From positions 169,570,001 through 169,634,000 of the forward strand of contig OZ024741.1 in the NCBI GenBank assembly GCA_964016885.1: 64,000 nt of DNA, read 5' to 3'. Within the stretch, counting starts at the first letter, position 1; each line of letters begins with the position of its first letter. Under the pieces are notes generated by a model, which saw only the letters and a program-made list of their open reading frames with translations, was not told the origin of the DNA and did not search any database. This document shows, piece after piece, positions 11,001 through 64,000 of this stretch. Position numbers and translations under genes: made by a program. This DNA is from Eledone cirrhosa (taxonomy: Eukaryota).

Positions 11001-14000
11001 GTTGCCTACACGGCCACATTACAGCGTGGACTGTGTGTTTTTTTGTCGTGACACCTACACGATCTCATTTGTTTCGGCCTGGATGTTGTGGCACCAACAT
11101 AACTTTACATTGAAAGGGGCGGTGTGGATGGGGTGGGGGTGGTGGGACGGGGGTGTGTTTTGTTAGAGATGCCTACTGACTGTAGTAGGTTTTACTTTGT
11201 ATTTAGGTAAGGCGGGTCTTCTCTATTACTGAGTACCGCCAAAGGTCTCAGTCCAGTGACATTGTCTTGGAGAGGTGTAAGCGTGTGAGGTCGGAATTTA
11301 TCATGTTGTCCCAGGTTTTTCTGGGTCTGCTTACTCCGTGGCTACCGTCCATCTTTATTGCCCTGCATTTTGTTATACAGCTGTCGTCTTTCATGCGCAT
11401 CACGTGACCATACCAACGTAGCCTTCTCTCGAGTAAACAACATCTGATCCCTCTTATTTCTAATTATTTCCTTAGTTCGTTTATGCTTAGCCGTTCACGT
11501 ATATTACTATTACACATCCAGCGGAGCATGCAAGCTTCGTTCCTCTCTAGTCTGCATATATCCTCTGCACACAATGCCCAGGTCTCACTGCCATGCAGCA
11601 TTGCTGTTCGTATGCAGGCATCATATAACCTGCCTTTCATTTTTAGGGAGAACCCTTTAGCGGCTAATAGTGGTATAAGCTCTCTGAACTTTTTCCCTCC
11701 AGTTCTGACTCTAGCTACTGTACTTTCAGAGCACCCTCCCCCACTGCTGATTTTGTCACCCAGGTAACGGAAGCTGTCCACTATTTCTATAGAGCCCTCT
11801 GCGCAGTTGAAAGAGCTAGTATTTTGTGGGCACTTGCTGCTACTTATTGCACCAGAGCACCGGCCACATGTGAAATCTATGTTCTTAGTTAGCTTACCTG
11901 TGATCCCACTACATCTTTTATGCACCCATACTTTGCATTTGGGACATAAAATGGAGTTTCTACCTACGCCTTTCCTACACACTGAGCATGGCCATTTCCC
12001 GGAAGGGACCGCCGCCTTATTTTCTTTCTAACAAACTAGAACTTTAGTCTTAGCCAGGTTAATTTTAAGGCCTTTTGATTCTAGGCCGTGCTTCCATGTT
12101 TGGAATTTCTTCTCTAGCTCGGTCATTGATTCAGCTATGAGCGTTAGATCATCTGCGTATAGGAGTTCCCATGGGCAGCCGGTCTTGAACTCCTCTGTTA
12201 TAGCCTGAAGGGCAATAATAAATAGTAGGGGGCTAAGAACAGAGCCCTGATGGACACCAACTTTTACGCTAAACTCTTCACTATATTCGTTGTTAATTCT
12301 AACCTTGCTGACTGTTTCTTTATACATGGCTTGTATAGCTCTCACAAGCCATTCGTCAACACCTAGTTTTCTAAGAGCCCACCAGATAATGGAACGGGGG
12401 ACTCTGTCGAAGGCTTTCTCCAAGTCAACAAAAGCTAAGTATAGGGGTTTACTTTTAGCTAGGTACTTCTCCTGGAGTTGTCGTACAATGAAAAGAGCGT
12501 CTGTGGTACTTTTGCCTGACACAAACCCGATTTCATCTAGATCAATTCTCTCTCTGATTAGTTGCGCTATTACTTTTTCCGTGACCTTCATGACCTGGTC
12601 AATTAATTTAATGCCTCTATAGTTACACCTATCTAGGGCATCTCCTTTACCCTTGTAACAGTTAATGATGATGCTGCTATGCCAGTCCTTCGGAACAACC
12701 CCATTCTGTATGACTTGGTTTACTATCCGGGTGACCATGGTGTGTCCCACCGTTCCAGAGGCTTTCAGCATCTCAGCAACTATTTCCGAAGGCCCAGCCG
12801 CCTTACCCGTCTTCATATCTTTGATTGCCTTACTTATTATACTACCTTCGACTAACACTGCTGGTTCCTCTATTGGGTCGATGTGGGGGAGACTGTCTTT
12901 CTCCCATTTGTTCTCCTCATTTAGAAGCCTTTCGTAGTGACACTTCCAAGCTACCTTCTTATCAGCGTCAGTGATGGCAAGTATGCCATCATCATTAAGT
13001 ACACACTTCTCCCCGACAATATCACGGTTTTCCTTGACACTTTGCCTAGCAATCCTGAACACCTCACGTTTTTGGTCCTCACGTTGTAGAACAAGCATCT
13101 GTTTACTAATGAAATGGTTTATTAATCTCATTAAATTCTTCAAATTTTCAAAATCAGTTGATACAAATAGGCAGTGTACTTCATTAGAAATATGCTAAAA
13201 AAAAGGTATATATATATATCATCATCATCATTTTACGTCCGCTTTTCCCTGCTTGCAAGGGTGGGACGGTTCTTATTCAGCAGAGCATCTCTCCACTCGT
13301 CACGGTCCCTCGTCATCTCCACCGTGAGCTTCAATGATCTGAGGTCTGTTCTCACCACCTCCACCCATGTTTTTCGTGGTCTACCTCTACCACGTCTTCC
13401 TTCAACTGGCAATTCCTGGCACTTCTTCACCCATTTGGTCATCCTCCATGTCCACACCACCTTAGTCTCCTCTCCCGTACACTACATTCTATCCCTCTCA
13501 GACACAGTTTCTCTCTCAACACATTTATGCTGGGTCGTTCATGCACATTTACACTGCACATCCAATGGAGCATGCTTGCCTCATTTCTCTCCAGCCGTCG
13601 CATATCCTCTGCAGTTGCTGCCCATGTCTCACTACCATGCAGCATCACGCTCCTCACACAGGCATCATACAACTGGCCTTTCGTACGCAGGGAGAAACCC
13701 TTCTTCGTCAACAGAGGAAGCAGCTCCCTAAACTTCTTCCAACCCGTCCTTATTCTAGATACTATGGCCTCGGAACACCCTCCTCCCATGCTAATCTGAT
13801 CTCCTAGGTACCGGAAGCTATCCACCACTTCTATAGCGCCCTCTTGCATTTGAAAAATGTGTCTATCAGTGCGACTTCTACTGTCTAATTTCCCTGTACA
13901 TCTACTGCATATATATATATCATCATCATTGTTTAATGTCCATCTTCCATGCTAGCATGGGTTAGACGGTTTTGTTCCATTTGATGCGGGAATGGTCAGG

Positions 14001-17600: not shown

Positions 17601-20600
17601 GGCACAATGACTGCATTACATTAAAAATTAAAATCTTTTACTTTAGTTTACTATAAATTTTCACAATGACCGTCAATAGTGATGATATTATAATTATTTA
17701 AATTAACAAACCCTATTTTAGCCATTTTCTATGAAATCATTACAGAGTGTTAAAAGCTAATAGGGGCCTCAGTGCATTGCCTTGTTAGGGGGGTTATGAT
17801 ACTGTTTATCTGTTTGATACTAAACTACCTGAAACTGCCTTGGGTTCTCATCATCATCATCATCATCATCATCGTTTAACGTCTATCTTCCACGCTAGCA
17901 TGGGTTTAGACGGGAATTGTACCACTTGAGGCAAGATTGGTTGTCTTGCTCGTATAGGACTGTCTGGCGGGTTTTCTACAGCTGGATGCCCTTAACACCA
18001 ACCATGTTTACAGTGTGGGACTGGGAGGTTTTTACCGTGTTACCTACACGGCCACATTACAGTGTGGACTGTGTGTTTTTTTGTCGTGACACCTACACGA
18101 TCTCATTTATTTAGTACTGGATCGTGTGGTACTAACATAACTTTACATCGAAAGGGGGTGGTGTAGATAGGGGTAGTGGGATGGGGGTGTATTTTTGGTT
18201 AAGAGGTGCCTACTGACTGTAGGTCCCGCTTTGTACTTAGGCAAGGCGGGTCTTCTGTATTACTGTGTAGCGCCAAAGATCTCGGTCCAGTGACATTGTC
18301 TTGGAGAGGTGTAAGTGTGTAAGGTCGGAATTTATCAAATCATCCCAGATTTTTCTGGGTCTGCCTACTCCGTAGCTACCATCTATTTTGATCGTCCTGC
18401 ACTTTTTTTATACAGCTGTCGTCTTTCATGCACATCACGTGACCATACCAACGTAGTCTTCTCTCGAATGAACAACATCTGATCCCTCTTATTCCTAATT
18501 TCTCACTTAGTTCATTTATGCTTTGCCGTTCACATCCAATGGAGCATGCAAGCTTCGTTCCTCTCCAGTCTGCGTATATCCTCTGCACACAATGCCCATG
18601 TCTCACTACCATGTAACATTGCTGTTCGTATGCAGACATCATACAGTCTGCCTTTCGTTTTTAGAGAGAAACCTTTAGCGGCCAATAATGGTATAAGCTC
18701 TCTGAACTTTTTCCATCCAGTTCTGACTCTAGCTACTGTACTTTCAGAGCAGCCTCCACCACTGCTGATTTTGTCATCCAGGTAACAGAAGGTGTCCACT
18801 ATTTCTATAGAACCATCTAGGCAATGGAAGGAGCTAGTATCCTGTGGGCACTTGCTACTACTTATTGCACCTGAGCACCGGCCACATATAAAATCTATGT
18901 TCTTAGTTAGCTTACCTGTGATCCGACTACATCTTTTATGTACCCATACTTTGCATTTGGGACATAAAATTTAATTTCTGTCTACTCCTTTCCTACACAC
19001 TGAGCATGGCCGTTTCCCATAGGGGACCAGTGCCCTATTTTCCTTTCTACATACTAGAACTTTAGTCTTAGACAAGTTAATTTTAAGGCCTTTTGATTCT
19101 AGGCCATGCTTCCATGTTTGGAATTTCTTCTCTAGTTCAGCCATTGATTCGGCTATGAGCGTTAGATCATCTGCATATAGAAGTTTCCATGGGCAGCCGG
19201 TCTTGAACTCCTCTGTTATAGCCTGAAGAGCAATAATAAATAGGAGGGGGCTAAGGACAGAGCCCTGATGAACACCAACTTTTACGCTAAACTCTTCACT
19301 ATATTCGTTATTAATTCTAACCTTGCTGACTGTTTCTTTATACATGGCTTGTATAGCTCTCACAAGCCATTCATCAACACCTAGTTTTCTGAGAGCCCAC
19401 CAGATAATGGAGCGAGGGACTCTGTCAAAGGCTTTTTCCAAGTCAACAAAAGCTAAGTATAGGGGTTTACTTTTAGCCAGGTACTTCTCCTATAGTTGTC
19501 ATACAAGGAAAAGAGTGACTGTGTTACTTTTACCTGACACAAACCAAAACTGCATTTCATCTAGCTCAATTCGCTCTCTGATTAATTGCGCTATTACTTT
19601 TTCTGTGACCTTCATGACCTGGTCAATTAATTTAATGCCTCTATAGTTTCCCCTATCTAGGACATCTCCTTTACCCTTGTAGCAGTTAATGATGATGCTG
19701 TTATGCCAGTCCTTTTGTATGACCCCATTCTGTATGACTTGGTTTACTATCCGGGTGACCATAGTGTGTCCCACCGTTCCAGATGCTTTCACATTTCAGC
19801 AACTATCTCCGAAGGCCCAGCCGCCTTGACTGTCTTCATATCTTTGATTGCCTTACTTATTATACTACCTTCAACTTGCACTGCTAGTCCCTCTATTGGA
19901 TCTATGTGGGGCAGACTGTCTTTGTCCCATTTATTCTCCTCATTTAGTAGCCTCTCGTAGTGACACTTCCAACCTACTTTCTTATCAGCGTCAGTGATGG
20001 CAAGTACACCATCATCATTACGGACATATTTCTCCCCGACAATATCACGGTTTTCCTTGACACATTGCCTAGCAATCCTGAACACCTCACGTTTTTGGTC
20101 CTCGCATTGTAGAACATGCTTGAACTTTCTTTCCTCTGCTTCTCTTCTTGCGAAGTACACTTGTCTCCTAACTTCCCTCCTGGCCACTTGATCGTCTTCT
20201 CTACTTCCCCCATCCTGCCATACTTTCCAAGCCTGCTTTTTGGCCTTGATTGACTCCTCCACCTTACTGTTCCACCACCAAGTTACTCTCCTCCTGCCTA
20301 TAGGTCTGCTCCAGCCACAGATTTCATCTGTCGCCTTCAGCAGGTTAGCTTTCAGGAATTCCCACTCTTCCTCTATATTGTGCGACTCTAATTGCTCTTC
20401 CTTACCGTCAAAAGCATCAAGTAATATGCTTTTAAATTTATTACTGCCTGTGGGGTCTTTTAACTTCCATATTCTTCTCCTTAGGGTAGTCCTCCTCTGT
20501 TGTCGAGTACGTCTCGTCCTGACTATGAGGTCGCTAACTATGAGGCTATGTTGGGAGGTGCATTCTTCATGGGGGAGGGATTTAGTGTTTACAACAGACA

Positions 20601-23600
20601 CTCTGTCACATCTTCTGGTAAGGATATAATCTATCTGACTGGCTTGTTCCCCTGATCTATAGGTGATCAAGTGATTGTCTCGTTTTTTGAAGTTTGTGTT
20701 ACAGATAGTTAGGTTATTTGCGTCACAGAATTCCAGGATTCTGGAGCCTTCCTCATTTCTAGTACCAAACCCATAGCCGTCATAGCCGTCACAATGTTGT
20801 CCAACGTGACCATTTAGGTCGCCAGCAATAATTATGTAATCACTGTCAGTTATTTGGGAGGGAGTGAGCATTAGTGACTCATAGAATCTGTCTTTTATAA
20901 CGCCAGGAAGTCCGGATTGGGGTGCATACGTGAATATTATTGTCACAGTAGTTCTATTTAGGACAAGTCTTATTTTAATTATTCTGTCATTCACTCTATT
21001 TACGTCTATTATCTTATCTACCCATTTTTCTGCTACCATGATTCCTACTCCACCCAGCCCATTGTCATTTCCTACCGAGAAAAGTTTATAGCATCGTTTT
21101 TTACCCACAATGAATCTAGCAGACCCACCCCTCCACTTGGTCTCTTGAATACAGCAAACATCAAGTTCCTTACGTTCAAGCATCTTTACAACCTTGTTAG
21201 AGCAACCTTTTAAAGTGCCTACATTCATGATACTAACTCTGAAGTTTTGGATTTCGTTCTGTGGGTGGAAAGGATGGGTTGGAGGTGCAGGGAGGGGTGA
21301 GGGAGATGGGGTTATGTTAGCCATCCGCGTTCGAAATAAAGAGGAGGAGTCCTTGCATTCTCGTCTGGCAACATGAGGTGAATTTGTCTTTATCTTTGGC
21401 ATTGTCATTGAGTGTCCAGATTTTTCAGACTCTCCAGAATTCCATAGTCCATCTAGAATATCGAAAAGCAACCAGGTCTAAACTTAAGAAGTGATATTAT
21501 AAGCTGCTGAATTATGATTGGACCAAATAATAATGGTGGCGAGTGGGGTCTGGGGGAGTTAGCGAGAAGGTTATTTTATAATAATATAATCCTAGAATTT
21601 CGGCCATAATTAAATGAGCATATAACAGTAATAAGAGTAAGAGTTTAATACAAGTAGAAGATCATTTTCGGGGGTCTGACAGAATCATGGGAGTTTAAAA
21701 TACAAGAAGATTGTTTTGAACAATCAAACAGAATTATCGAATAGCATTGAAAAGAAAAGATTGGATTTTGGACGATATAATACAGATAGATGAATGGACC
21801 AGGGAACATGGAGAGATGAGAAAAAAGTAGGATGAGTACATTACATTTCACAAAAGAGCGAATAGCATTGAAAAGAAAAGATTGGATTCTGGACGATATA
21901 ATACAGATAGATGAATGGACCAGGGAACATGGAGAGTTGAGAAAAAAATAGGATGAGTACATTACATTCACAAAAGAGCGAGCGAGCGGTGTAGCCAAGC
22001 TTAAGGGATCGACAAATTCTGAGTTTCGTAGCTCACAACAAGTTTATTTTATATTTGGAGAGAGGGGAGGGGTGAAGAAGAGGAGAGGGTTGGAAGAAGT
22101 TTCGAGAAGGTTATTTTATAATACTAGCAGTGGTACCCGGCGTTGCACGGGATAAGGTATTTTGGAACGCGGGCCGCCAATAGACCTAATCGTGGAGAAA
22201 CTGCATGCCTGGACAATATGTAAAGAAAATCAACCGAATACTCTGATGGCTGGATAATCTTTAAGATTTTCCTCAATGAAGCAGGAAAAATACAGGTTTT
22301 CACCTAAGGGATCAAGAAAATGAATTTTTTTTATGTGCATAATATGCCTTGAAATTTCGGGAAAAATCGGCTAGATGTAATGTCTCCAAAAAGCCCTAAG
22401 AAGCTGAAAAAATGAAGTTTTTCACCTAATGCGGGCCTTAGGCCATAAGAAATTGGATTTTCTTTGCTTACGGTATGAAGAAGAGACTGACTAATACATA
22501 GTTACAATTTCAAGGAAATCGGTCTGACATAACGCCTCAAAAAACCCCTAAAAATGTTAAAAAACGCAGTTTTTCACCTAATGCGGGGCCCTAGGAGATC
22601 AGAAAGTTGAATTTTTATGTGCATAACACTTCCTGAAACATAAGTAATACACATGTAAAGTTTGAAAAACATCGGCTGGGTACTTCTCAAATTTTAGGGA
22701 TTCAAACTCGCAGACAGTCAGACATACAGACAGATATTATAAGGACGCGACGTTATATGTATGTATCTATCTAAAAAGAGAAACACTAAGAATTATAGAG
22801 CGAGATCGCTAAATCGCCTAATGCGGACCCTAGCGCATTGAAAATTTGAAATTTTTTTTTGCTCAGAACACTCCCTGAAACATAAGTATTACATGTGCAA
22901 AGTTTGAAAACAGTTGGTTTGGTGCTTCTCTACAATACTAACCGGTAAAATAGTAACTTTTGTTCTCATAAAGGCACGTAAGTAAACAAACTGAAGCTAT
23001 TATAGCGAAACAGATATTATAAGGGCGCGACGTTATATGTATGTATCTATCTAAAAAGAGAAAGACCAAGAATTATAGAGAAAGATCGCTAAATCGCCTA
23101 ATGTGGTCCCAAGGGCATAGAAAATTAGAAATTTTGCTCAGAACACTCCCTGAAACATAAGTATTACATGTGTAAAGTTTGAAAACAGTCGGTTGGGTGG
23201 TTCTCGAGTTTTAGCGATTCAAACTCACACACACACAGACAGACATCCTCAGTTTCATATATATATAGACTAGCAGAAAACCACCCGGTGGGCGGTTTTC
23301 TGCTAGTATATATATATATTACACACACAGAAATGTATATATATTTCTGTGTGTATATATATATATATATATATATTACACACACAGAAATGTATATATA
23401 TTTCTGTGTGTATATATATATATATTACACACACAGAAATGTATATATATTTCTGTGTGTATATATATATATTTCTGTGTGTGTATATATATATATATTA
23501 CACACACACACAGAAATGTATATATGTTTCTGTAGCACTCCTCAATTCCCCCCTCTCTCCCTCCCGCTATCCCCCTCTTGTAGTCTGTCTCTTTCTTTCA

Positions 23601-25715
23601 CTCTCACTCTACGCGTGCGCAAAAAACATTCGCACGCGCGCACGTGTTTTAGCGTCTATTCACTCTCTCTCTCTCCCTCCCGCTATCCCCCTCTCGTAGT
23701 CTGTCTCTTTCTTTCACTCTCACTCTCTCTCTACGCGCGTGCAAAAAACATTCGCACGCGTGCACGTGTTTCCACTGTCGGACAGACAGACAGAGAAATT
23801 GCTGGTTATATATTATAAGGAGATAATCCTAGAATTTCGGCCATAATTAAATGAACATATAACAGTAATAAGAGTAAGAGTTTAATACAAGTAGAAGATC
23901 GTTTTCGGGAGTCTGACAGAATTATGGGATTTTAAAATACAAGAAGATTGTTTTGAACAATCAAACAGAATTATTGAATAGCATTGAAAAGTAAAGATTG
24001 GATTCTGGACGATATAATACAGATAGATGAATGGACGAGGGAACATGGAGAGATGAGAAAAAAATAGGATGAGTACATTACATTAATACAAAACTGCTTG
24101 TTTTAAAATCTTTATCATCATCATCACTGTTTAGCATCTATTTTACATGCTTGTATGGGATAGATGGGCTGTCACATTATGAGGCTAAACAGATCAGCTG
24201 ACCACATCTTGCTCATATACTCTGTTTTGGGAGAACATTTTTCAATGTCGAAAAGGTCCTTTTTAGAATACTCTGCAAAAGAGATTTCTTCCAGATATAT
24301 AGGCAGTTGCTTTATCTAAACAATCGGACAATATGTGGAACCAAAGTAACAAAAATTAAACTTAAATCGGATATACACTCACTTACAATATCAACTGTGT
24401 TGCTCTGTGTTTGCTGGTAATGGTTTGATTTTTTTTTTGTGTTTTTTTGGTTTTTGTCTTGTTTTTGGTCTTTTTTTTATGGAGAATGCCCTTCCACATT
24501 TCAGCATCTACAGGGAGCTTTTTTTCATAGTTTACAGGGTGGACTGGGTGCTTTTTTTGTTCGTCTAGTTTGTATTCATCGAAAAGCTTTCCATTGTAAT
24601 TTTACATTAGAAACTTCTTTAAGCTATGTTCCAAACACCAGCTTAGTAATGAGTAAGTTAGTAAAATCACTAAATCCCTTAAAATATTTGATTATTTTCA
24701 GTCTTTTGAAAATTATAAGCTTTAATTTTCATTAGAAATATGGTAACGAAAGTATTAAGACAGCTCTGATAGTATAGAACCTACTGACGGCTACCTACTT
24801 TTGTTTTTAACAGGCTATCACTGCCACTGACACATGGGTTGCTGTGGCCACTAGTATACGACTTCTCCGACTTTTCACCATCACTGGAGTTCAAAAAGAA
24901 ATCCTCACTCTTGCAGGTCCTGTCGTTTGTCTATCTGGTTTTAAAGACTTCTTGATGGTTGTCTACCATCGAGGTGGTGGTAAGTACACTACAGACTTTT
25001 TATTTGGGAAGATTGGTTTCTTTTATTTTTCATGGTTTTGTTTACAAGTGGATTATTGTTGACTTCCACCTTGTGTATGTATGTGCGTGCACACACACAC
25101 ACTTATATATATATATATATATAATTAAAATTAAGCTTCAGTATAGCTGTATACATACGTGTATGTGAATTTAGTATATCTAAAGATATGTATGGTATGT
25201 TTGATAAATAAACATTTCGAAAGGCCAGCTGTGAATAGAAAGGGTGACGGCCAGTGCCATCTAGCGGATTCCAACAGAAGCAGCGTAGGATAACTGTCTA
25301 TGCATTTCGAGCTCTGGCTCAAAATGCATAGACGGTTATCTTCCTACACATACATACGCACACACATACATATATATATATGTATATATTTGGCTTAGTG
25401 GTTAGAGCATTGGCCTTGCAATCGAAAGGTTGTGAGTTCAATTCTCAGACCGGGCAAATGTGTTGTTTCCTTGAGCAAGGCACTTTATTTCACATTGCTC
25501 CAGTTTACTCAGCTGTAGAAATGAGATGATAGGGACTGGGGTCCCTATCATTCCACTGCAAAGTGGTCGTGGAGGTGCCACGGCAAAAAAAGCACCCAGC
25601 ATTCACTGTAAATGAGGTTGGTGTTAGGAAGGGCATCCAGCTGTAGAAATCAAGCCAAAATCAGTTCCCGTCCCACCCTTGCAAGCAGGGAAAAAGCTGA
25701 TGTAAAATGAAATGA

Positions 25716-28700: not shown

Positions 28701-31700
28701 GCCAGACTTGTCTCATGATGTGGATAACCTGTCTAACCTATGCAGGCATGGAAAATAGATGTTAAATGGTGCTGATGATGACTGCACTCATTTCATGAAA
28801 GTTTCTCTCCATGACACAAAAATTACACATACAAATTATAAATGCATTCAAATATATACACACAGCCACAGGTTGTAGACTGTATCTTCTGGATAAATTT
28901 AGCAATCTTACAACTTATGGTATATCACCTCTTAACACTGACAAGCTTGCTGTCTCTTGAGACTTCTGGGAGTTGTTGGCAGCTTGTACAAACAAAAGCA
29001 AAGCCAAAATATAATAATAATAACAATAATCTTATTATAATTGTTGGTGTGTTTCGTCCATTCGTTAATACATTATACTTTAGTTACATACACACACATC
29101 TACACATAAATGCATAAACAGATACACAGACCACAGAAGTGCAAACACACACACACACAGATCTACTCATATATATTCATAAATAGACACATCATACAAA
29201 ATAATTATTACATACACACACATATCTATGGTTGAGGAAGGAAGCGGCTGGTGAAACGCTATAGCGATGAGTGTTCCAGAGTAGCTACACTTGTATGTAT
29301 GCGTTTGTGTGAGTGTATGTGAGCGTTTGTGTGAGTGTATGTGTGTGTTTTATGTGAGTGTGTTTGGGCATTTATTTTTATAGACTCATACATATAAATG
29401 TATGAGTCTATAAAAATAAGGAGGCATATGGCTTAGTGGTTAGAGCATTGGCCTTGCAATCGAAAGGTTGTGAGTTCAATTCTCAGACCGGGTGATGTGT
29501 TGTTTCCTTGAGCAAGACACTTTATTTCACATTGCTCCAGTTTACTCAGCTGTAGAAATGAGATGATAGGACTGGGGTCCATATCATTCCACTGCAAAGT
29601 GGTCGTGCAGGTGCCACGGCAAAAAAGCACCCAGCACTCACTGTAAATGAGGTTGGTGTTAGGAAGGGCATCCAGCTGTAGAAATCAAGCCAGAATCAGT
29701 TCCCGTCCCACCCTTGCAAGCAGGGAAAAGCAGACGTCAAAATGAAATGATATGCCATATACACATACATACACACAGTTGTGAGGAATTGTGTATGTAC
29801 AGAGACAGGCAATGAATGAAGAGATAATATACAACTAGATAAATGTCTCTTAAATAGCTCCTCTTAATCTTTTCATCCGTGGAATTTCCCTGGGTCTCGC
29901 TAGTAATAATAATAGTAATAAAAATTATAAAGATCTGGCAATAGAAACAGGTCAAATGTGGATGATGAAAAACAGAGGACCCCGTACTGTCGAGATCCTC
30001 CACAAGATTGGAGCCTTGGTGGCCCCCTCTGAGGAGGGAGCCCCATGAGGTTGGGTGGCTGTTGCAGCGGGTGTGACTGGCCATCGTCCACGAAGCGCAG
30101 CACTTCTGCCCTCTTGCTCTAGGTCCAAAGACCAATCACCCTCCCCCTTCACCCCTCCCTCTCTTCTGCAACACCAGAGCTCTTGCTATCCCCTCTCCTT
30201 CCTGTTTTTTTTCTTTATATTTCCCTATTCTTTCTTTCCTTTTGTTTCCTCCCTGTTTTTTTTTATTACTGCCATCATTATAGTTGTCATACGGGGTCGA
30301 TAAAATAAAGTACCAGTAATGCACTGGGTAATTGCTGGCCTTGTGCCTAAAGTAAAAACAATTATTATTGTTCGGGCACCATGCTTTGCAGCAAAGAGTT
30401 ACGGCCCTTTATAGTCTGAGTTCAAATCCCGCTGAGGTTAACTTTGCCTTTCATCCTTACGGGGTCGATAAAATAAAGTACCAGTAATACACTGGGATAA
30501 TTGCTGACCTTGTGCCAAAAGTAGAAACAATTATTATTATTATTAATGGCGGTGAATTGGCAGTATCAGTAGAGGGCCGGACGCCATGCTTTGCAACAGA
30601 GTTACTGTCCTTTACGATCTGAGTTCAAATCCCACCGAGGTTAACTTTGCCTTTCATCCTTACGGGGTCGATAAAATAAAGTACCAGTAATGCACTGAGA
30701 TAATTGCTGGCCTTGTGCCAACTGTAGAAACAGTTATTATTATTATTATTGTTATTGTAAATAATTGTTTCTACTATTGGCACAAGGCCAGCAATTATCT
30801 CAGTACATTACTGGTACTTTATTTTATCGACCCCCGTAAGGATGAAAGGCAAAGTTAACCTCGGCGGGATTTGAACTCAGAATGGCAAGGGTCATAACTC
30901 TATGCGTCAAAGCATATATAAATACATATTGGCAGTATCGGTAGATACTGCCAATTCACCGTTATTGTAAATGATATCATGTTTATACAGTTATGTAAAT
31001 GATATCATGTTTATACAGTTATTGTAAATGATATCATGTTTATACAGTTATGTATTTATATATGCTTTGAGAATCATAAAAAAACTCACAATAGACAGAT
31101 CTATAACTAAAACTCCAGAACTTACAAATGTATAAAACTTACAAAACATAGCACTACTAGGCACAGTACATATATTATGAAGAGTACTCTTAATACTCCA
31201 TTGTAGCCTAGTGGTAAGGGTGTTGGACTTATGATCATAATGTTGTGGGTTCGATTCCTGGGCTGGGTTGTGTGTTGTGTTCTTGAGCAAAACACTTCAT
31301 TTCACATTGCTCCAGTATACTCAGCTGAAAATGAGTACCAGCAATAGCTGGGTGTGTAACCCTGCGATAGACTGGCGTCATGTCCAGTGGGAAGTCTTGT
31401 ACTCCCAGTCGCTTCACGCCATGACACTGGGATAAGCATCGGCCTAACGAGCCTTAAATGGTTGAAGACAGACTTTAGACTTTTAGACTCTCAATACAAT
31501 AGAACCAACAACTTCAAAGCAACTCTGCACTGACGACATGTAATAAATAAAATAATAATATGTTGACATCAATATGGTTGCTCTGAACACCAACACACCA
31601 ATAGCAACATCACCATCACTATCACCATCACCAACTTTACCTTACATCTCATTGTGCTCCTCTATATTTCAGGCTAAAGGAAAATCAGACTATTTCTGGA

Positions 31701-32384
31701 TTATTAGCATTCTGGAAACTCAACAACAGATCAGGTAAATATTGTTAATATTCTCTTTATCTCTGTTTGCCTGTTTGTCTCTATGTGTATAAATATATAT
31801 AGACACGGATGCACATGCACACACACACACACATATATATATATATAGGGAGCTCATAGATATAAGGGTTTCTCCCTGCGTACGAAAGGCCGGTTGTATG
31901 ATGCCTGTGTGAGGAGCGCGATGCTGCATGGTAGTGAGACATGGGCAGCAACTGCAGAGGATATGCGACGGTTGGAGAGAAAAGAGGCAAGCATACTCCA
32001 TTGGGCGTGCAATGTCAATGTGCGTGAACGACCCAACATAAATGTGTTGAGAGAGAAACTGTGTCTGAGAGCGATAGAATGTAGTGTGCGAGAGAGGAGA
32101 CTGTGGTGGTATGGACATGTGATGTGCACGGAGGATGATCGATGGGTGAAGAAGTGCCAGGAAATGCCAGTTGAAGGAAGGCGTGGTAGAAGTAGACCAC
32201 GAAAAACCTGGGTGGAGGTGGTGAGAACAGACCTCAGATCGCTGAAGCTCACGGTGGAGATGACGAAGGACCGTGACAAGTGGGGAGATGCTGTGCTGAA
32301 TAAGACCCGTTCCACCCTTGCAAGCAGGGAAAAGCGGACGTAAAAGGATGAAAATGATGATATATATATATATATACCCACACA

Positions 32385-48461: not shown

Positions 48462-48857
48462 TATATAGTCATACTTATAATTTTACAATGTGTGAATACA
48501 TGCATACATACATACATGCTCACATGCATGCAAGTATACTGCATATTGAGAATGTACATATGAGTGTGTGTGTGTGTGTTAATTTATGTGCTCTTATAGT
48601 TGTGTATATGTGTGTATATATAAAGTCAAACTTCTCTACATAATGTGTGTCACTGATCATTCATTTACATAGTTGTTGGGGTGTACTGTACACACACAAT
48701 ATATATATATATACACAGGGTGTCCCCAAAAGATGTATACACATTTTCATTACCTATACAGGCAATATTTATTAGAATGGTGTATACATGTTTTGTGGAC
48801 ACTCTGTATATATATTGCATGTGTGTTTGCTGAAGTATGCGCTTTCATAGTTTTTTA

Positions 48858-50152
48858 CATGTGTGAGTATATTTTCATACATGTGTGTGTATATTTTCAT
48901 ACATGTGTGTGTATATTTTCATACATGTGTGTGTGTATATTTTCATACATGTGTGTGTATATTTTCATACATGTGTGTGTATATTTTCATACATGTATGT
49001 GTATATTTTCATACATGTGTGTGTATATTTTCGTACATGTGTGTATATATTTTCGTACATGTGTGTTTATATTTTCATACATGTGTGTGTATATTTTCAT
49101 ACATGTGTGTGTATATTTTCATACGTGTGTGTATATTTTCATACATGTGTGTGTATATTTTCATACATGTGTGTGTATATTTTCATACATGTGTGTATAT
49201 ATTTTCGTACATGTGTGTTTATATTTTCATACATGTGTGTGTATATTTTCATACGTGTGTATATTTTCATACATGTGTGTGTATATTTTCTTACATGTGT
49301 GTGTATATTTTCATACATGTGTGTGTATATTTTCATACATGTGTGTGTATATTTTCATACATGTGTGTGTATATTTTCATACATGTATGTGTATATTTTC
49401 ATACATGTGTGTGTATATTTTCATACATGTGTGTGTATATTTTCATACATGTGTGTGTATATTTTCATACATGTGTGTGTATATTTTCATACATGTATGT
49501 GTATATTTTCATACATGTATGTGTATATTTTCATACATGTGTGTGTATATTTTCTTACATGTGTGTGTGTATATTTTCATACATGTGTGTGTATATTTTC
49601 ATACATGTGTGTGTATATTGTCATACATGTGTGTGTATATTTTCTTACATGTGTGTGTATATTTTCTTACATGTGTGTGTATATTTTCATACATGTATGT
49701 GTATATTTTCTTACATGTGTGTGTATATTTTCTTACATGTGTGTGTATATTTTCGTACATGTGTGTATATATTTTCATACATGTGTGTGTATATTTTCAT
49801 ACATGTGTGTGTATATATTCATACATGTATGTGTATATTTTCATACATGTGTGTGTATATTTTCATACATGTGTGTGTATATTTTCGTACATGTGTGTGT
49901 ATATTTTCATACATGTGTGTGTATATTTTCATACATGTGTGTGTATATTTTCGTACATGTGTGTATATATTTTCGTACATGTGTGTGTATATTTTCATAC
50001 ATGTGTGTGTATATTTTCATACATGTGTGTGTATATTTTCATACATGTGTGTGTATATTTTCATACATGTGTGTGTATATTTTCATACATGTGTGTGTAT
50101 ATTTTCATACATGTGTGTGTATATTTTCATACATGTGTGTGTATATTTTCAT
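48858..50152. repeat. 22-bp minisatellite, about 59 units
   Basis: Unit acatgtgtgtgtatattttcat, highly homogeneous. Confidence 0.97.
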
Positions 50153-50720
50153 ATGTAAAAATTATATAAATATTTTCATATTTTCATATGTTCATGGATA
50201 TACATATATAATGAAGTGCTTGTCCATGGAACATGGACAAGCACCCACATGTTGATTTATATGTATATATGTGTATGTGTGCTGCATATTGTATGTATTA
50301 AAATATGACTCCTTACTTGTGCGTATATATATAACAGCCATTTTTGTGCATATGTGACAGTGCTCACATTTACACATTCTTCTGTGTGTGTGTGTATGTG
50401 TGCCCACTTTAGACTTTCATTAGCACTCCACACTCAAGACTCCTTGTATTATATTGGTGGGTGTGTATGAATTTTCAATTTCAATATCTCCATCATTGTC
50501 ATCAGCAATGCCATCATCATCATCATCATCATCATAATTTACTCTTCATTTTGTGAGATTTTAATAAGAAAAATGAAACAAACATGTACAGTGTGTATGA
50601 GAGAGAGGGAAAGAGAGAGAGAGAGAGAGTGTACGATTGTGTTGGGAATAGAGAATGATTATGTTAAATTCTTGTGTGGGCGACTGTATGTGTATATGTA
50701 CATGTATGTGTGTGTTGCAT

Positions 50721-50770
<50 letters not shown>

Positions 50771-50775
<5 letters not shown>

Positions 50776-51364
50776 TCTGAATTTGTTTAGCAAGATTCTT
50801 TATCTGAAATCGTGTGTTGAAACCGATATTGTTATACTTTGGGAGGGTCATGTTGCCAATAAGAAACACACGCACCAGTTGCTTTCACTTCAATTTATTA
50901 TAATAAATTTATAATAAATTTATAAATTTATAAATTTCTGGTTGGTTGGTTGGTTCCACAACCAGATAGTTGTTTATATATTGTCATAGTTCTTTCGTCA
51001 CACACTCTGTGACCTCTTCAGTGACTGGGGATTCCTTTCTTTGTTTCTGTGCCTCTCCTTTGTTCTGTCCTACACCATTTTGTTTCTGTGTGTGTCACAC
51101 ACAGAAACAAAATGGTGTAGGACAGAACAAAGGAGAGGCACAGAAACAAAGAAAGGAATCCCCAGTCACTGAAGAGGTCACAGAGTGTGTGACGAAAGAA
51201 CTATGACAATATATAAACAACTATCTGGTTGTGGAACCAACCAACCAACCAGAAATTTATAAATTTATAAATTTATTATAAATTTATTATAATAAATTGA
51301 AGTGAAAGCAACTGGTGCGTGTGTTTCTTATTGGCAACATGACCCTCCCAAAGTATAACAATAT
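50771..51364. mobile_element. Fold-back PLE terminal fragment containing a perfect palindrome (50826-51364)
   Basis: 50771-51094 is homologous to about 63255-63577; 269-bp arms around a single T at 51095; flanked by (TA)n on both sides. Confidence 0.9.
51165..51207 (+). ncRNA. Minimal type I hammerhead ribozyme (mirror copy on - strand at 50983-51025)
   Basis: GTCA-CTGAAGA-G-GTCACA(gagtg)TGTGAC-GAAA-G(aa)CT-A-TGAC gives stem I GTCA/TGAC, intact core, stem II and a 2-bp stem III. Predicted cleavage 3' of 51203. Confidence 0.75.
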
Positions 51365-53459: not shown

Positions 53460-55420
53460 GTCACAACAAAAAGCACCCAGTACTCACTGTAAAGTGGTCG
53501 TGTAGGTGTGTGTTACAACAAAAAGCACCCAGTACTCACTGTAAAGTGGTCTTGTAGGTGTCACAACAAACAGCACCCAGTACTCACTGTAAAGTGGTGT
53601 AGGTGTCACAACAAAAAGCACCCAGTACTCAGTGTAAAGTGGTCGTGTAGATGTCTTAACAAAAAGCACCCAGTACTCACTGTAAAGTGGTCGTGTAGGT
53701 GTCACAACAAACAGCACCCAGTCCACACTGTAAAGTGGTTGTGTAGGTGTCTCAACAAAAAGCACCCAGTACTCACTGTAAAGTGGTTGTGCAGGTGTCT
53801 TAACAAAAGCACCCAGTACTCACTGTAAAGTGGTCGTGTAGATGTCACGACAAAAAGCACCCAGTCCCCACTGTAAAGTGGTCGTGTAGGTGTCACAACA
53901 AAAAGCACCCAGTCCATACTGTAAAGTGGTTGTGTAGGTGTCACGACAAAAAGCACCCAGTCCACACTGTAAAGTGGTTGTGTAGGTGTCACGACAAAAA
54001 GTACCCAGTCCACACTGTAAGGTGGTCGTGTAGGTGTCAACAAAAAGCACCCAGTACTCACTGTAAAGTGGTCGTGTAGGTGTCACAACAAAAAGCACCC
54101 AGTACTCACTGTAAAGTGGTCGTGTAGGTGTGTGTTACAACAAAAAGCACCCAGTACTCACTGTAAAGTGGTCGTGTAGGTGTCACAACAAAAAGCACCC
54201 AGTACTCACTGTAAAGTGGTCTTGTAGGTGTCACAACAAACAGCACCCAGTACTCACTGTAAAGTGGTGTAGGTGTCACAACAAAAAGCACCCAGTACTC
54301 ACTGTAAAGTGGTCGTGTAGGTGTCACAACAAACAGCACCCAGTCCACACTGTAAAGTGGTTGTGTAGGTGTCTCAACAAAAAGCACCCAGTCCCCACTG
54401 TAAAGCGGTCGTGTAGGTGTCACAACAAAAAGCACCCAGTCCACACTGTAAAGTGGTTGTGTAGGTGTCTCAACAAAAAGCACCCAGTCCCCACTGTAAA
54501 GCAGTCGTGTAGGTGTCACAACAAACAGCATCCAGTCCCCACTGTAAAGTGGTTGTGCAGGTGTCTCAACAAAAAGCACCCAGTACTCACTGTAAAGTGG
54601 TCGTGTAAGTGTCACGACACAAAGTACCCAGTCCACACTGTAAAGTGGTGTAGGTGTCACAACAAAAAGCACCCAGTACTCACTGTAAAGTGGTCATGTA
54701 GGTGTCTCAACAAAAAGCACTCAGTCCACACTGTAAAGTGGTCGTGTAGATGTCAACAAAAAGCACCCAGTATTCACTGTAAAGTGGTCGTGTAAATGTC
54801 ACAACAAAAAGCCCCCAGTACTCACTGTAAAGTGGTCGTGTAGATGTCTTAACAAGAAGCACCCAGTACTCTCTGTAAAGTGGTCGCGTAGATGTCACAA
54901 CAAAAAGCACCCAGTACTCACTGTAAAGTGGTCGTGTAGGTGTCACAAGAAAAAGTACCCAGTCCACACTGTAAAGTGGTCGTGTAGATGTCACAACAAA
55001 AAGCACCCAGTATTCATTGTAAAGTGATCGTGTAGATGTCACAACAAAAAGTACCCAGTACTCACTGTAAAGTGGTCGTGTAGATGTCTTAACAAGAAGC
55101 ACCCAGTACTCTCTGTAAAGTGGTCGCGTAGATGTCACAACAAAAAGCACCCAGTACTCACTGTAAAGTGGTTGTGTAGGTGTTGCAACAAAAAGCACCT
55201 AGTCCACACTGTAAAGTGGTTGTGTAGGTGTCGCAACAAAAAGCACCCAGTACTCACTGTAAATGAGGTTGGCATTAGGAAGGGCATCCAGCTGCAGAAA
55301 CCAAGCCCAAATCAGTTCTGTATGAGCAAGACATGGTCACCTTACCTAGCATTGTCCACAACAGGACAACTCGTCTAACCCATGCTAGCGTGGAAAAATG
55401 GACGTAAAGCGGTGATGATG
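53460..55420 (+). repeat. 48-bp minisatellite (about 37-38 units) fused to a SINE/RTE-type 3' tail
   Basis: Unit gtcacaacaaaaagcacccagtactcactgtaaagtggtcgtgtaggt; runs into ...ggttggcattaggaagggcatccagc...catgctagcgtggaaaaatggacgt(gat)n. Confidence 0.95.
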
Positions 55421-59132: not shown

Positions 59133-62110
59133 AAGAGAGAGAGAAAGAGAGAGAGCGAGAGAGACAAGAGAGAGAGAGAGAGAGAGAGAGAAGCACACTA
59201 TACATAAAGTATAGTTAATAATAAATTAATAATTGTTTCTACTTTAGGCACAAGGCCAGCAATTATCCCAGTACATTAGTGGTACTTTATTTTATCGTCC
59301 CCGTAAGGATGAAAGGCAAAGTTAACCTCGGCGGGATTTGAACTCAGACCGTAAAGGGACGTAACTATGCTGGAAAGCATGGCGTCCGACCCTCTACCAT
59401 AGTAATTGCAACTAAAACTAGAGATATCACATGGAAAAAAATCAAATCTGGAGTGAAATTCGGAGTTACCATATTTTAAAATCTGTTTTGATTGGTGATA
59501 CATACATACATACATACACGATGGCTGCCCCCTCGTTATTGAGTATGGCCATTGCACAATATAACATTATTAATGATTATTAATTAATTGTTTCTACTTT
59601 AGGCACAAGGCCAGCAATTACCCAGTGCATTACTGGTACTTTATTTTATCGACCCCATAAGGATGAAAGGCAAAGTCAACCTCAGCGGGATTCGAACTCA
59701 GATCGTAAAGGGACGTAACTATGCTGGAAAGCATGGCGTCCGACCCTCCACCGATGCTGCCAATCCACCGCCATAATTAATGCTATTGTGCAATGCCTGT
59801 GCGTGAAGATTTTATTTTAAATGAGGAAAGATTGTGCACTGCGCCAATCTCAATCTCTGAGCGACAGTAGCTATAACCCGAAAAGAAGAAAAGATCAACA
59901 TGATCGGTAACTACTGAGCCGCAGGTTTTATATTCCTGAGTAGCCTTCTCCTAGAAGAATGCTCTGACAATAGCTAGGGTCCTTCACTCCCAGTGGTTTA
60001 ACCGCGCGATCGGGTATTCAACCCGATTATTTCTATGTCCCCGCGCATATACACACATATGCGACAGGGTTACATGTTACCAGTAACACTCAAGAGTCAC
60101 CCGACATATGTAGCACTCAAGAGTGATCCGACATACATATATACATACATACATACATACATACATGGTGGCTGCCAACTCGTTTTCGAGTACAGCCACT
60201 ACTTTATATCCATGTAGGAGAACCCCTACCGATGCGCTGAACGAGTGTGACTTTTTAGTCCAGCCAGCGACTTAAAAACTCTGGTACAAACACTACACTT
60301 GTGGCAATTATTGACACACAGTGCTGGGCCCATGGTACCATGTGACGACAAGTGCAGAGAGATTTCCAGATATCAAGCAATGCCTGTGCTGTGAAGCTTT
60401 TATAGTGAGCAAAGGCACTGCACAAAGCCAATCCCACTCTCTTAACCAAGATGATATTTACCAAAAAGAAGAACAAGTCAACATCATTGGATACCATCAG
60501 GGTTGCAGGTGTTATATCAGAGTTTTCCTTCTAGAATTCTGCCTTGACAAAGGCTAAGGGGTCATCTCTCCCGGTAATTTTGGATGGTCATTGACTCTTA
60601 AGAGCTCCTTTGCCCTTTGACAGGTTTTGGTTTTAGTCCTGCAGGATGTCCAAAGTCACCCTCCTCACCAAGAAACCTTGGTGGGGTTGCCAGTTTAGTC
60701 GCCAACGACATACATACATACATACATACATACATACATACATACATACATACATCGAATGCCCCGTCGGTTACGAATTACCACGTGATTTGCACCTAGA
60801 AAGTTTCCCTCTGAGTCTCAAGTCCGGGCAAGGTTGTTTGTGGAAGACCAGCAGTCACCCATGCATACCAGTCTCCTCTCTTCACGCCACCGCCACCGAT
60901 GATGTCCAAAGGAAAGGCTATGGCTGATACAGCTTGACACCAGTGACGTCGCAACTCATTTTTACAGCTGAGTAAACTGGAGCAACGTGAAATAAAGTGA
61001 CTTGCTCAAGGACACAACGCATCACCCGGTCCGAGAATCAAATTCGCAACCTTTCAATTGCAAGACCAATGCTCTAACCACTAAGCCATGCGCCTTCACA
61101 TACATACATACATAATTACATACATAATTACAAGTACAATCCATTAATGGAAAAGTAAAAATATGTAAAACATTCTGCATCTAATCTAAAACATTCTGCA
61201 TGTACACATGTACAGATACAAGGCATATGCACATGCACACATATAACTGAAAAACATCCACATCCACACATACAATAACATCGATAGCTGCACACACATG
61301 CATGCAAGCAGACATGCAGACATATTTACGTAGTTGATGTGTAAATTCCAATGAGAGAGTCTTGTTTCTGTTAGAAACCGACTCTCTCTCTATTGGTAAA
61401 CATTTATAAAATTATACAACCAGAAGAACATACATACGCACGCGCGCGCGCACACACACACACACACACACATAGATATATACATACACACATACGTGCG
61501 TCCGTGACTTTATTTCTAGATAAATACCTCTAGATAAAAAAAAATATCACATATAATAAACGTGTATACTTATAGGAAGACAGCAAATGTCCGCATAGAT
61601 ACAAAATATTAGTTGTAGCATACCACCCCTTAGAAGTGTATTTGGATCCTCTTTCACAAACGAAGCACTGGATAAAGGAATCTGTAGAATAAAATCAAAC
61701 ATTTATTTCACAACGGATATTCGAACAAACTAGTAGACCAAATTATAGATTAACATAAACATAAATATAATTCATCAAATGCATTAGACATTATTCCCAT
61801 GAAATATATACAAAACGTGTTATATGAATAATATATGCATATAAACAATTGTGCTGACGAACACATAATATAAAATCTCATAAAACGCATTACAAAATAC
61901 ATTATAACCTAACACTACAAACGAACAAACCGAGCATTATAATAAATGTTCGGTAAACCGATACGTGCATATATATATGTGTGCATGTATGTATATATAT
62001 ACATACTACTGTACGTCTGTATACATATATGTATGTACGTATACATACATACTTACATTTAAGTAAGTGCCGTACTAAGAGTGAGAAATGAAATTTCGTT
62101 TCATTCTATT

Positions 62111-62164
<54 letters not shown>

Positions 62165-62355
62165 TAATAAAAGGAATTCCAGCTTTGTCTGATTTACTCG
62201 TTTTATTTACAATCCTTTAAAATTTATAATGGTATTAGAATGAAATAGTATGGTAGAATATTAAATGTTAAGTGTTAATTGACAGTCAAGTTTGCAATTT
62301 TCAACTGAAAATTTTCACAGTTGAAAATTGCCAACTTGACTGTCACCACAGAATA

Positions 62356-62394
62356 TGAACCTGAAGATTGCGAAAGCATGAAAGTACTTGTTCA
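62356..62394 (+). ncRNA. Minimal type I hammerhead ribozyme
   Basis: TGAAC-CTGAAGA-T-TGC(GAAA)GCA-T-GAAA-GTAC-T-T-GTTCA gives stem I TGAAC/GTTCA, GNRA-capped stem II and palindromic AGTACT stem/loop III. Confidence 0.75.
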
Positions 62395-62539
62395 ATTAAC
62401 ACTTAACATTTAATATTCTACCATACTATTTCATTCTAATACCATTATAAATTTTAAAGGATTGTAAATAAAACGAGTAAATCAGACAAGGTTAGAATTC
62501 CTTTTATTAATATAATCTTCTATACACAATCATACACAC

Positions 62540-62857
<318 letters not shown>

Positions 62858-63142
62858 TATTTACGTATCGAGAGAGAGAAAAAAAAGGGGAAGATAGGTG
62901 ATACATATAGTTATTTGCCAAGTAGCGTATGCCAAAGGTGCTCGATACTAGTGCCGGCAGTATTAAATATTCGAAGTGTTAATATTTAGTGGGCTAGAGA
63001 GTTAGCAGAGCCTAAGCACGTGGGAAAGTAAGAAATCGGAGAATAGAGCGTTAAAACATGTTTATTTAAAACAGCACCTACGTACGTTTCGCCCAGTTGG
63101 GCTTCTCAAGGGCATAAATAATCAAAAGTTTTGATTTTTTAT

Positions 63143-63182
63143 GCCCTTGAGAAGCCCAACTGGGCGAAACGTACGTAGGTGG
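63143..63182 (+). ncRNA. Minimal type I hammerhead variant with U3-A8 core (mirror copy on - strand at about 63074-63113)
   Basis: GCCC-TTGAGAA-GCCCA(ac)TGGGC-GAAA-CGTACG-T-A-GG. The core has U3/A8 in place of C3/G8; loop III is palindromic (ACGTACGT); stem I is short. Confidence 0.6.
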
Positions 63183-63254
63183 TGTTTTAAATAAACATGT
63201 TTTAACGGTCTATTCTCCGATTTCTTACTTTCCCACGTATATATATATATATAT

Positions 63255-64000
63255 TTCGTTTCTGAATTTGTTTAGCAAGATTCTTTATCTGAAAACGTGT
63301 GTTGAAACCGATATTGTTATACTTTGGGAGGGTCATGTTGCCAATAAGAAACACACGCACCAGTTGCTTTTACTTCAATTTATTATAAATTAAATTTATA
63401 AATTTAGGAATTTATATAATTTCCGGTTGGTTGGTTCCACAACCAGACGATTGTTCATATATTGTCAAAGTTCTTTCGTCACGCATTCTGTGACCTATTC
63501 AGTGACTGGGGATTCTTTTCTTTGTTTTTGTGCCTTTCCTTTGTTCTGTCCTACGCCATCTTGTTTTTGTGTGTGTGTTGTGTGCTTAGTTTGCGCATGT
63601 GTTACATCCGGGTGTCTGTGTGTGTTTATATTTGTTTATTTATTTGTTTATTTACATGTTACTGGTTGGTTGTTTGTTCTATGCGTGTGTGTGTTTTCAT
63701 TTTGTCCTTAATTGTAAGTTGTGATGTTGCTATTCCATTCATGCTTTCTATTTAATTTTGGTTGGAGTTCATTTATGTTTATTGCCTCTGTGATTTGTCT
63801 AAACATTGCGTCTTTTCTGTGTGTAGATTCTATTTTTATTTCTATGTTCTCTAATTTACCCTTATGTTCTATTTTAGAATGTTGGTAGAATACAGATGAT
63901 TCTTTACTATCTTGAAGCTCTCGCCAGTGTTCATTTATCCGTTCTCCTATACTACGAGCTGTCTCACCTATGTACACTATATTCTTTTGACTAAAGGAAT
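63255..64000 (-). mobile_element. Penelope-like element (PLE): 3' end of ORF with GIY-YIG endonuclease plus 3' terminal repeat; runs off the window
   Basis: ORF 63708-63977 VYIGETARSIGERINEH...H...H...RQITEAINI...PKLN is a PLE-type GIY-YIG C-terminus. The downstream region contains a hammerhead-like motif and ends at a (TA)n tract. Confidence 0.9.

Follow-up and report, generated by a model that had tools for sequence, protein, structure and literature searches.

The fold-back locus and its setting

The window, the whole 64,000-nucleotide stretch of Eledone cirrhosa DNA that was analysed, contains exons of the host gene WDHD1 (AND-1/CTF4) at 333-48121 on the plus strand, for which the proteins of Octopus vulgaris and O. 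sinensis match best among those with a name. The fold-back is found about 14 kb downstream of the last of these coding exons, in a region of microsatellites and transposon fragments. Open reading frame (ORF) fragments of LINE type, with endonuclease and reverse transcriptase (RT) motifs, are present at 11464-13951, 18530-21477 and 31849-32343; by resemblance these are presumably RTE-like. There is also a tRNA-derived SINE-like repeat at 25390-25449, 61001-61110 and at least eight similar places, with a weak Rfam tRNA match at 25390. Long minisatellite arrays at 48673-50255 and 53484-55378 contain open but repetitive reading frames. Short fold-backs with arms of 22-63 bp, in which no hammerhead was detected, are found at 810-946, 4778-4841, 23257-23319 and 29372-29419, and some of these may be smaller scars of Penelope-like elements (PLEs).

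The features of the locus are as follows.

62113..62159, no strand: (TA)n microsatellite, left half of the target (sequence reading)
62162..62307, minus: inverted 5'-truncated copy of the element's 3' end, 146 bp, with no tail and without 49 bp that include the entire hammerhead (global alignment, 4 mismatches in 146 bp)
62280..62282, minus: deletion junction, with a 3-nt TCA microhomology (= 62343-62345 and 62392-62394) and 4 equivalent placements (alignment)
62306-62317, no strand: perfect 12-bp palindrome TGAAAATTTTCA containing the turn filler (sequence)
62308..62317, no strand: head-to-head turn, a 10-nt filler that differs from the family's upstream sequence (loose-end consensus at 62317)
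62318..62512, plus: forward 5'-truncated copy of the element's 3' end, part of the pseudo-LTR (alignment, family reads)
62346..62394, plus: 49 bp unique to the forward copy, rightmost placement of the deletion (alignment)
62356..62394, plus: minimal type I hammerhead motif, predicted cut after U62389 (CUU) (descriptor; without an Rfam match)
62513..62543, plus: 31-bp one-sided tail common to family copies, then TA-rich repeat (family loose ends at 62539/62540)
62545..62856, no strand: (TA)n/(CA)n microsatellite, right half of the target (sequence reading)

An initial annotation of the sequence had described a nested double fold-back, with 121-bp outer arms around a 28-bp inner hairpin and a hammerhead left unpaired. 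The pairing itself was verified. The outer arms (62162-62282 and 62392-62512) have 3 mismatches, at 62180/62494, 62182/62492 and 62184/62490, and the inner hairpin (62280-62307 and 62318-62345) is 28 bp long with 1 mismatch (62293/62332) and a 10-nt loop. Folding of 62162-62512, the check which that annotation had proposed, gives a minimum free energy of -209.5 kcal/mol for the 351 nt and a z-score of -32.8 against 100 shuffles. The minus strand of the fold-back folds just as stably (-208 kcal/mol), as for any DNA palindrome.

The nested design did not survive the alignment. The left part of the structure corresponds to the forward copy at 62318-62512 minus 49 bp, so that a single inverted duplication with one deletion explains both stems. 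Bases 62280-62282, which had been counted in both stems, are the microhomology of this deletion, and the two 'nested' fold-backs are therefore one duplication. The hammerhead is single and unpaired because its mirror copy was lost with the 49 bp. The arms, hairpin and motif of the earlier description thus stand, while these three bases were counted twice and the 31-bp tail was overlooked. This tail has no counterpart at the left end of the structure. Since (TA)n is present on both flanks, a target-site duplication is unreadable at this locus; unreadable duplications in microsatellites have likewise been remarked upon for PLEs (PMC8557442).

The hammerhead motif

The motif at 62356-62394 was found as initially annotated, with a GAAA-closed stem II and a palindromic AGUACU. 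Its stem I is formed by UGAAC and GUUCA, the core reads CUGAAGA followed by GAAA, stem II consists of 3 bp and a U-U pair, and the CUU triplet ends at 62389. Type I features are therefore present throughout, namely the CUGANGA and GAAA core, helices I and II, an NUH triplet and the palindromic helix III/loop 3. The motif is in the sense orientation of the element, in its terminal repeat, 118 bp upstream of the tail. The plus strand of this locus has a single core and the minus strand has none, and the window holds no tandem unit of it. A type I descriptor matches the window three times (51021-, 51169+ and 62361+), each time within a fold-back; in 200 first-order shuffles the mean was 0.07 matches, with at least one match in 14 of the 200 and three or more in none. 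The Rfam hammerhead models gave no match at gathering score across the 64-kb window. Over 62100-62600, none of the 32 Rfam matches listed at E values up to 10 is a hammerhead. Matches to miRNA-precursor models in that search were rejected, being far under their cut-offs and reflecting the hairpin and TA repeats.

It had also been proposed that the motif, present once and mostly outside the long stem, could fold within the hairpin RNA. There is indeed no antisense copy to sequester it, and the energies agree: forcing stems I and II in the 351-nt hairpin costs 0.2 kcal/mol (-209.3 versus -209.5), and the pairing probabilities are about 0.32 for stem I and about 0.97 for stem II. Helix III has only 2 bp, and adding even its first pair leaves the isolated motif unfavourable at +1.1 kcal/mol. 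Two copies of the motif co-fold at -6.6 kcal/mol through an 8-bp duplex of AAGUACUU, which agrees with the dimer-type arrangement suggested at the outset. In the modelled dimer a U at position 17 would pair with A14, and this may hinder cleavage. U17 belongs to the slowest class of NUH hammerhead triplets. No usable passage on measured effects of a CUU triplet was found in the published literature.

Comparison with the minimal hammerheads of PLEs shows the same 5-bp helix I, conserved core and tiny palindromic helix III suited to dimers, and the same situation of a single motif within a truncated element. There are three differences. Helix II is long in the PLE motifs and short here (3 bp and U-U). 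The G10.1-C11.1 pair is usual in PLE minimal hammerheads (PMC4209133) but absent here, where U62368 stands opposite U62379. The triplet is CUU, unlike in those motifs, although CUA is found in about 20% of the depth of one public sequencing run, X5. This run, which has a different organism label, has the CUA at 62389 and, in about 18% of its depth, an extra A in loop II at 62372; these variants are ribozyme subfamilies. PLE minimal hammerheads have been reported singly or on opposite strands 100-700 bp apart, and a single one showed no detectable cleavage in vitro while dimers were weak (PMC4209133).

The listed family variants are sparser in the motif than in its flanks. Of 26 listed variant places, 2 fall within the 39 nt, where 4.5 are expected (P = 0.13, or 0.37 without 8 private or artefact places), so that the deficit relative to the flanks is not significant over the full length. 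None of the 26 falls in the inner 28 nt at 62361-62388 (P = 0.03, or 0.08 after filtering), and among the variants listed there is no compensatory change in a stem. Given the 2-bp helix III, the CUU triplet, the U-U at 10.1/11.1 and the lack of an Rfam match, cleavage by the monomer is unlikely. The ribozyme is most likely a passenger from the parent element, with putative cleavage, if any, as a dimer or assisted by protein, and it likely does nothing at this locus.

Family copies and neighbouring insertions

Four of the 16 listed public runs (X1, X4, X5 and X14) were compared with the element. Matches to the family were obtained in 2082 contigs of X1, 1629 contigs of X5, 2434 reads of X14 and 4 contigs of X4, mostly 90-99% alike. 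Sequence continuing upstream past 62317 is present in 23 X1 contigs and 43 X5 contigs. Their consensus sequences are nearly identical to each other and do not resemble the loop at this locus, which indicates that the element is longer and has been truncated here. At the other end, the family terminates at about 62540 in TA-rich repeat (29 records in X1, 26 in X5 and 469 in X14). Among 15 joints listed, 5 join opposite strands at other positions, each in one X5 contig; family copies thus commonly fold back, at variable positions. Turns near 62308-62317 with shorter loops are seen in one X1 contig (depth 357) and two X5 contigs. Truncation may be favoured at this point, which is 38-48 nt upstream of stem I of the ribozyme; a hotspot is not claimed near 62317, because near turns are easier to detect than distant ones. 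Among the pieces listed, none covers the whole 351-bp stretch or carries the deletion junction.

The family reads also date the differences between the arms. At all 4 arm mismatches one arm holds the family majority base, which in X1 accounts for 99.6% of the depth at 62182, 99.6% at 62332, 98.6% at 62490 and 98.0% at 62494. The mutations therefore post-date the duplication; the left arm carries 1 of them and the right arm 3.

Pile-ups of read ends in X14, at 62175, 62224, 62280, 62326, 62397 and 62496, were considered as element ends flanking the ribozyme and rejected. All 6 listed places are AATT sites, 98% of the reads continue into dissimilar sequence, and the pile-ups are products of library digestion. 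The family may already carry a name in consensus collections (the PMC8557442 consensus files, Repbase or Dfam).

A second family in the window, unrelated in sequence, is built in the same way. It forms a perfect 269-bp palindrome at 50826-51364 with one hammerhead motif per arm; one arm adjoins (TA)n and the other carries a tail of about 54 bp. The insertion as a whole (50753-51364) turns with a 1-nt loop in a short TG/CA repeat, has its tail on the left only and is flanked by (TA)n. It is a 5'-truncated insertion of the PLE family found at 63238-64000. Its arms have 0 mismatches yet are 9% diverged from that other copy, and it is young or homogenised.

The copy at 63238-64000 links this second family to PLE proteins. 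Positions 63238-63576 are 91% like 50753-51095, the tailed arm of the palindrome, and lead into the end of an ORF at 63711-63998 on the minus strand. Its peptide has 49% identity to the protein P0001 over 91% of its length (E = 2.5e-14), and P0001 has an RT motif RYVDD, a Cys-rich linker and the endonuclease motif YIGET. The peptide has 506 relatives at E values up to 0.001. Among P0001 and the 150 relatives listed, mostly fragments, the YIG motif is present in 95, the Cys linker in 9 and RYxDD in 7. Pfam GIY-YIG was matched by 2 of 8 longer relatives tested, both below the curated cut-off. Neither the peptide nor P0001 gave anything significant in Pfam, and P0001 gave nothing significant in PDB. 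On the minus strand, 63238-64000 is a PLE 3' end with the end of a GIY-YIG ORF, a tail and a degenerate hammerhead near 63465-63506. The Cys-rich linker in the relatives of this element suggests a Neptune or Nematis type, going by sequence motifs. It is clear that Penelope-like elements form such palindromes in this genome, which is not proof for the family at 62162-62543: the GIY-YIG evidence is limited to the neighbouring, unrelated family, and its peptide has no Pfam GIY-YIG match.

A third fold-back at 63018-63238 has 101-bp arms and a 19-nt loop and adjoins (TA)n on its right. It contains a hammerhead-like motif with a UUGAGAA core, a 4-bp helix II, a palindromic helix III and a very short helix I; the core matches a U3-A8 variant described in PMC4209133. 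Three unrelated PLE-type insertions lie along TA microsatellites within 1.9 kb (62113-64000), and this cluster is a local pile-up on the preferred target.

The exact hammerhead pattern was found at 0, 0 and 0 loci in the metagenome, viral and prokaryote collections, respectively. A degenerate pattern gave 12 metagenome loci, which were set aside as chance matches; in none of the 12 do stems I and II both form, and blastn with the element and tblastn with P0001 gave no match among them. Within the 30 upstream nucleotides visible and the exact-pattern scans of the three collections, no RT or endonuclease ORF was tied to the exact family.

Origin of the inverted copies

The locus is very probably a dead 5'-truncated insertion of a Penelope-like retroelement in a TA microsatellite, in which the element's 3' end is present twice, head to head. 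This interpretation follows from the head-to-head inverted copy, the one-sided tail, the (TA)n target and the minimal hammerhead of dimer type, which are published hallmarks of PLEs. An inverted 5'-truncated copy, a one-sided tail of 30-40 bp and (TA)n targets are described by Craig et al. (2021, PMC8557442). A 31-bp tail, palindromes at junctions, head-to-head order, microhomology deletions and proposed self-priming are described by Arkhipova et al. (2013, PMC3846280). The supplement of PMC8557442 includes Octopus PLE families with a preference for (TA)n, namely Hydra-1_Obim, Naiad_Obim and Naiad_Ovul.

The endonuclease-bearing (EN+) PLEs (Neptune, Hydra, Penelope/Poseidon and Nematis) share with the locus the head-to-head 5'-truncated copy, the junction palindrome, the 31-bp one-sided tail, a hammerhead near the 3' end and a deletion bounded by microhomology. 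They differ in that no ORF remains here and that the deletion happens to strip the ribozyme from the inverted arm. The (TA)n target is as in Neptune, Hydra and Naiad. Because Naiads lack canonical hammerheads, Neptune or Hydra would be the more likely clade. A further parallel is the Poseidon element PAc of Anolis, whose AT-rich target is cut on both strands and whose tail extends from one start site of reverse transcription to a second (Frangieh et al. 2024, PMC11167929). By analogy, such a mechanism could give one tailed and one untailed arm at this locus. PAc differs in belonging to another clade and in having a ribozyme that overlaps the ORF start; this ribozyme requires protein for cleavage, and insertion in vitro does not depend on the ribozyme (PMC11167929).

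The following course of events would account for the structure. A PLE protein with RT and GIY-YIG domains would nick the (TA)n tract and start reverse transcription inside the 3' region of the RNA; the tail would represent the stretch between two reverse-transcription start sites, as in the lizard element. Copying would stop at 62318, and the second arm would arise by fold-back or self-priming through the short palindromic filler or, alternatively, if the opposite strand were primed separately. The 49 bp would be lost via microhomology slippage, in copying or in later repair, and the arms would thereafter drift by point mutation.

It might instead be supposed that a polymerase jumped over the folded hammerhead during insertion and so produced the deletion; the scar would then record the folding and leave a hairpin with a free ribozyme, possibly processed if transcribed. 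The deletion does end at the 3' base of stem I (62392-62394) and removes the entire motif. However, losing the whole motif to a microhomology deletion would not be exceptional by chance: of the 154 deletions of 20-100 bp that at least 3 nt of microhomology would allow in this arm, 22 (14%) also remove it, and random placement of 49 bp does so in 7.5%. Moreover, the folds of the deleted 49 bp as DNA are weak (-3.9 and -3.7 kcal/mol) and lack stem I, and the case is a single locus, some 14 kb after the final coding exon of WDHD1. A guided skip is therefore considered improbable, and there is a similarly slim chance that ribozyme-bounded skips and a preferred turn near 62310-62317 recur genome-wide. 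If they did, such scars would be a fossil record of the ribozyme fold during Penelope copying and would allow a test of the role of the ribozyme and of which strand is the template. No description of the loss of a hammerhead from an inverted PLE arm was found in the literature, where a deletion at one locus would hardly be reported.

Two further explanations take the hairpin itself as a unit. That the 351-bp structure is mobile, as a hairpin-shaped non-autonomous element or a MITE/foldback DNA transposon with a ribozyme in its loop, is suggested by the long inverted arms, the short unique centre, the high copy number and the X1 and X5 contigs that also turn near 62308-62317. It is nevertheless very improbable: the family extends upstream past the turn, the position of the turn differs in other copies, only one end has the tail, fixed ends with common terminal inverted repeats are absent, no listed piece spans the whole stretch or has its deletion junction, and two further fold-backs of unrelated sequence in the window adjoin (TA)n likewise. 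The initial annotation had likened the rod to viroid or retrozyme architecture, which would mean a viroid-like RNA or non-LTR retrozyme, transcribed, self-cleaving and circularising. Animal non-LTR retrozymes do share the type I hammerhead, the low GC content and a probable PLE ancestry, and this motif lies in AT-rich sequence, is able to fold its stems I and II within the hairpin and co-folds as two copies. But retrozymes are head-to-tail tandem arrays that give circular RNA, with repeats of 150-450 bp and canonical hammerheads (PMC7229834; bioRxiv 10.64898/2026.07.22.740005), whereas the locus consists of one palindrome in head-to-head order. As the motif occurs once and in one polarity, with neither a tandem unit nor a second copy in the window, no unit can be excised at both ends. 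The family element is longer and its turns are variable, the rod is a palindrome in the DNA, either strand of which folds in the same way, and the single PLE minimal hammerhead cited above was without detectable cleavage. A viroid or retrozyme architecture is accordingly not supported, and such a unit is considered extremely improbable.

The stretch at 62162-62543 is thus most likely the ordinary remnant of a PLE insertion, whose inverted arm lost its ribozyme through the 49-bp deletion. Read in this way, the fold-back matters little in itself, as a further decayed Penelope-type insertion in a lineage for which a catalogue of PLEs exists; for Octopus vulgaris, 31 Penelope-like families with recent activity have been tabulated (PMC13282606). 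The large family with its varied turns is a marker, and an assembly-wide census of it could address the origin of the inverted arm. Such a census could also show whether the hammerhead guides truncation or deletion, a question left open in PMC8557442 and PMC11167929.
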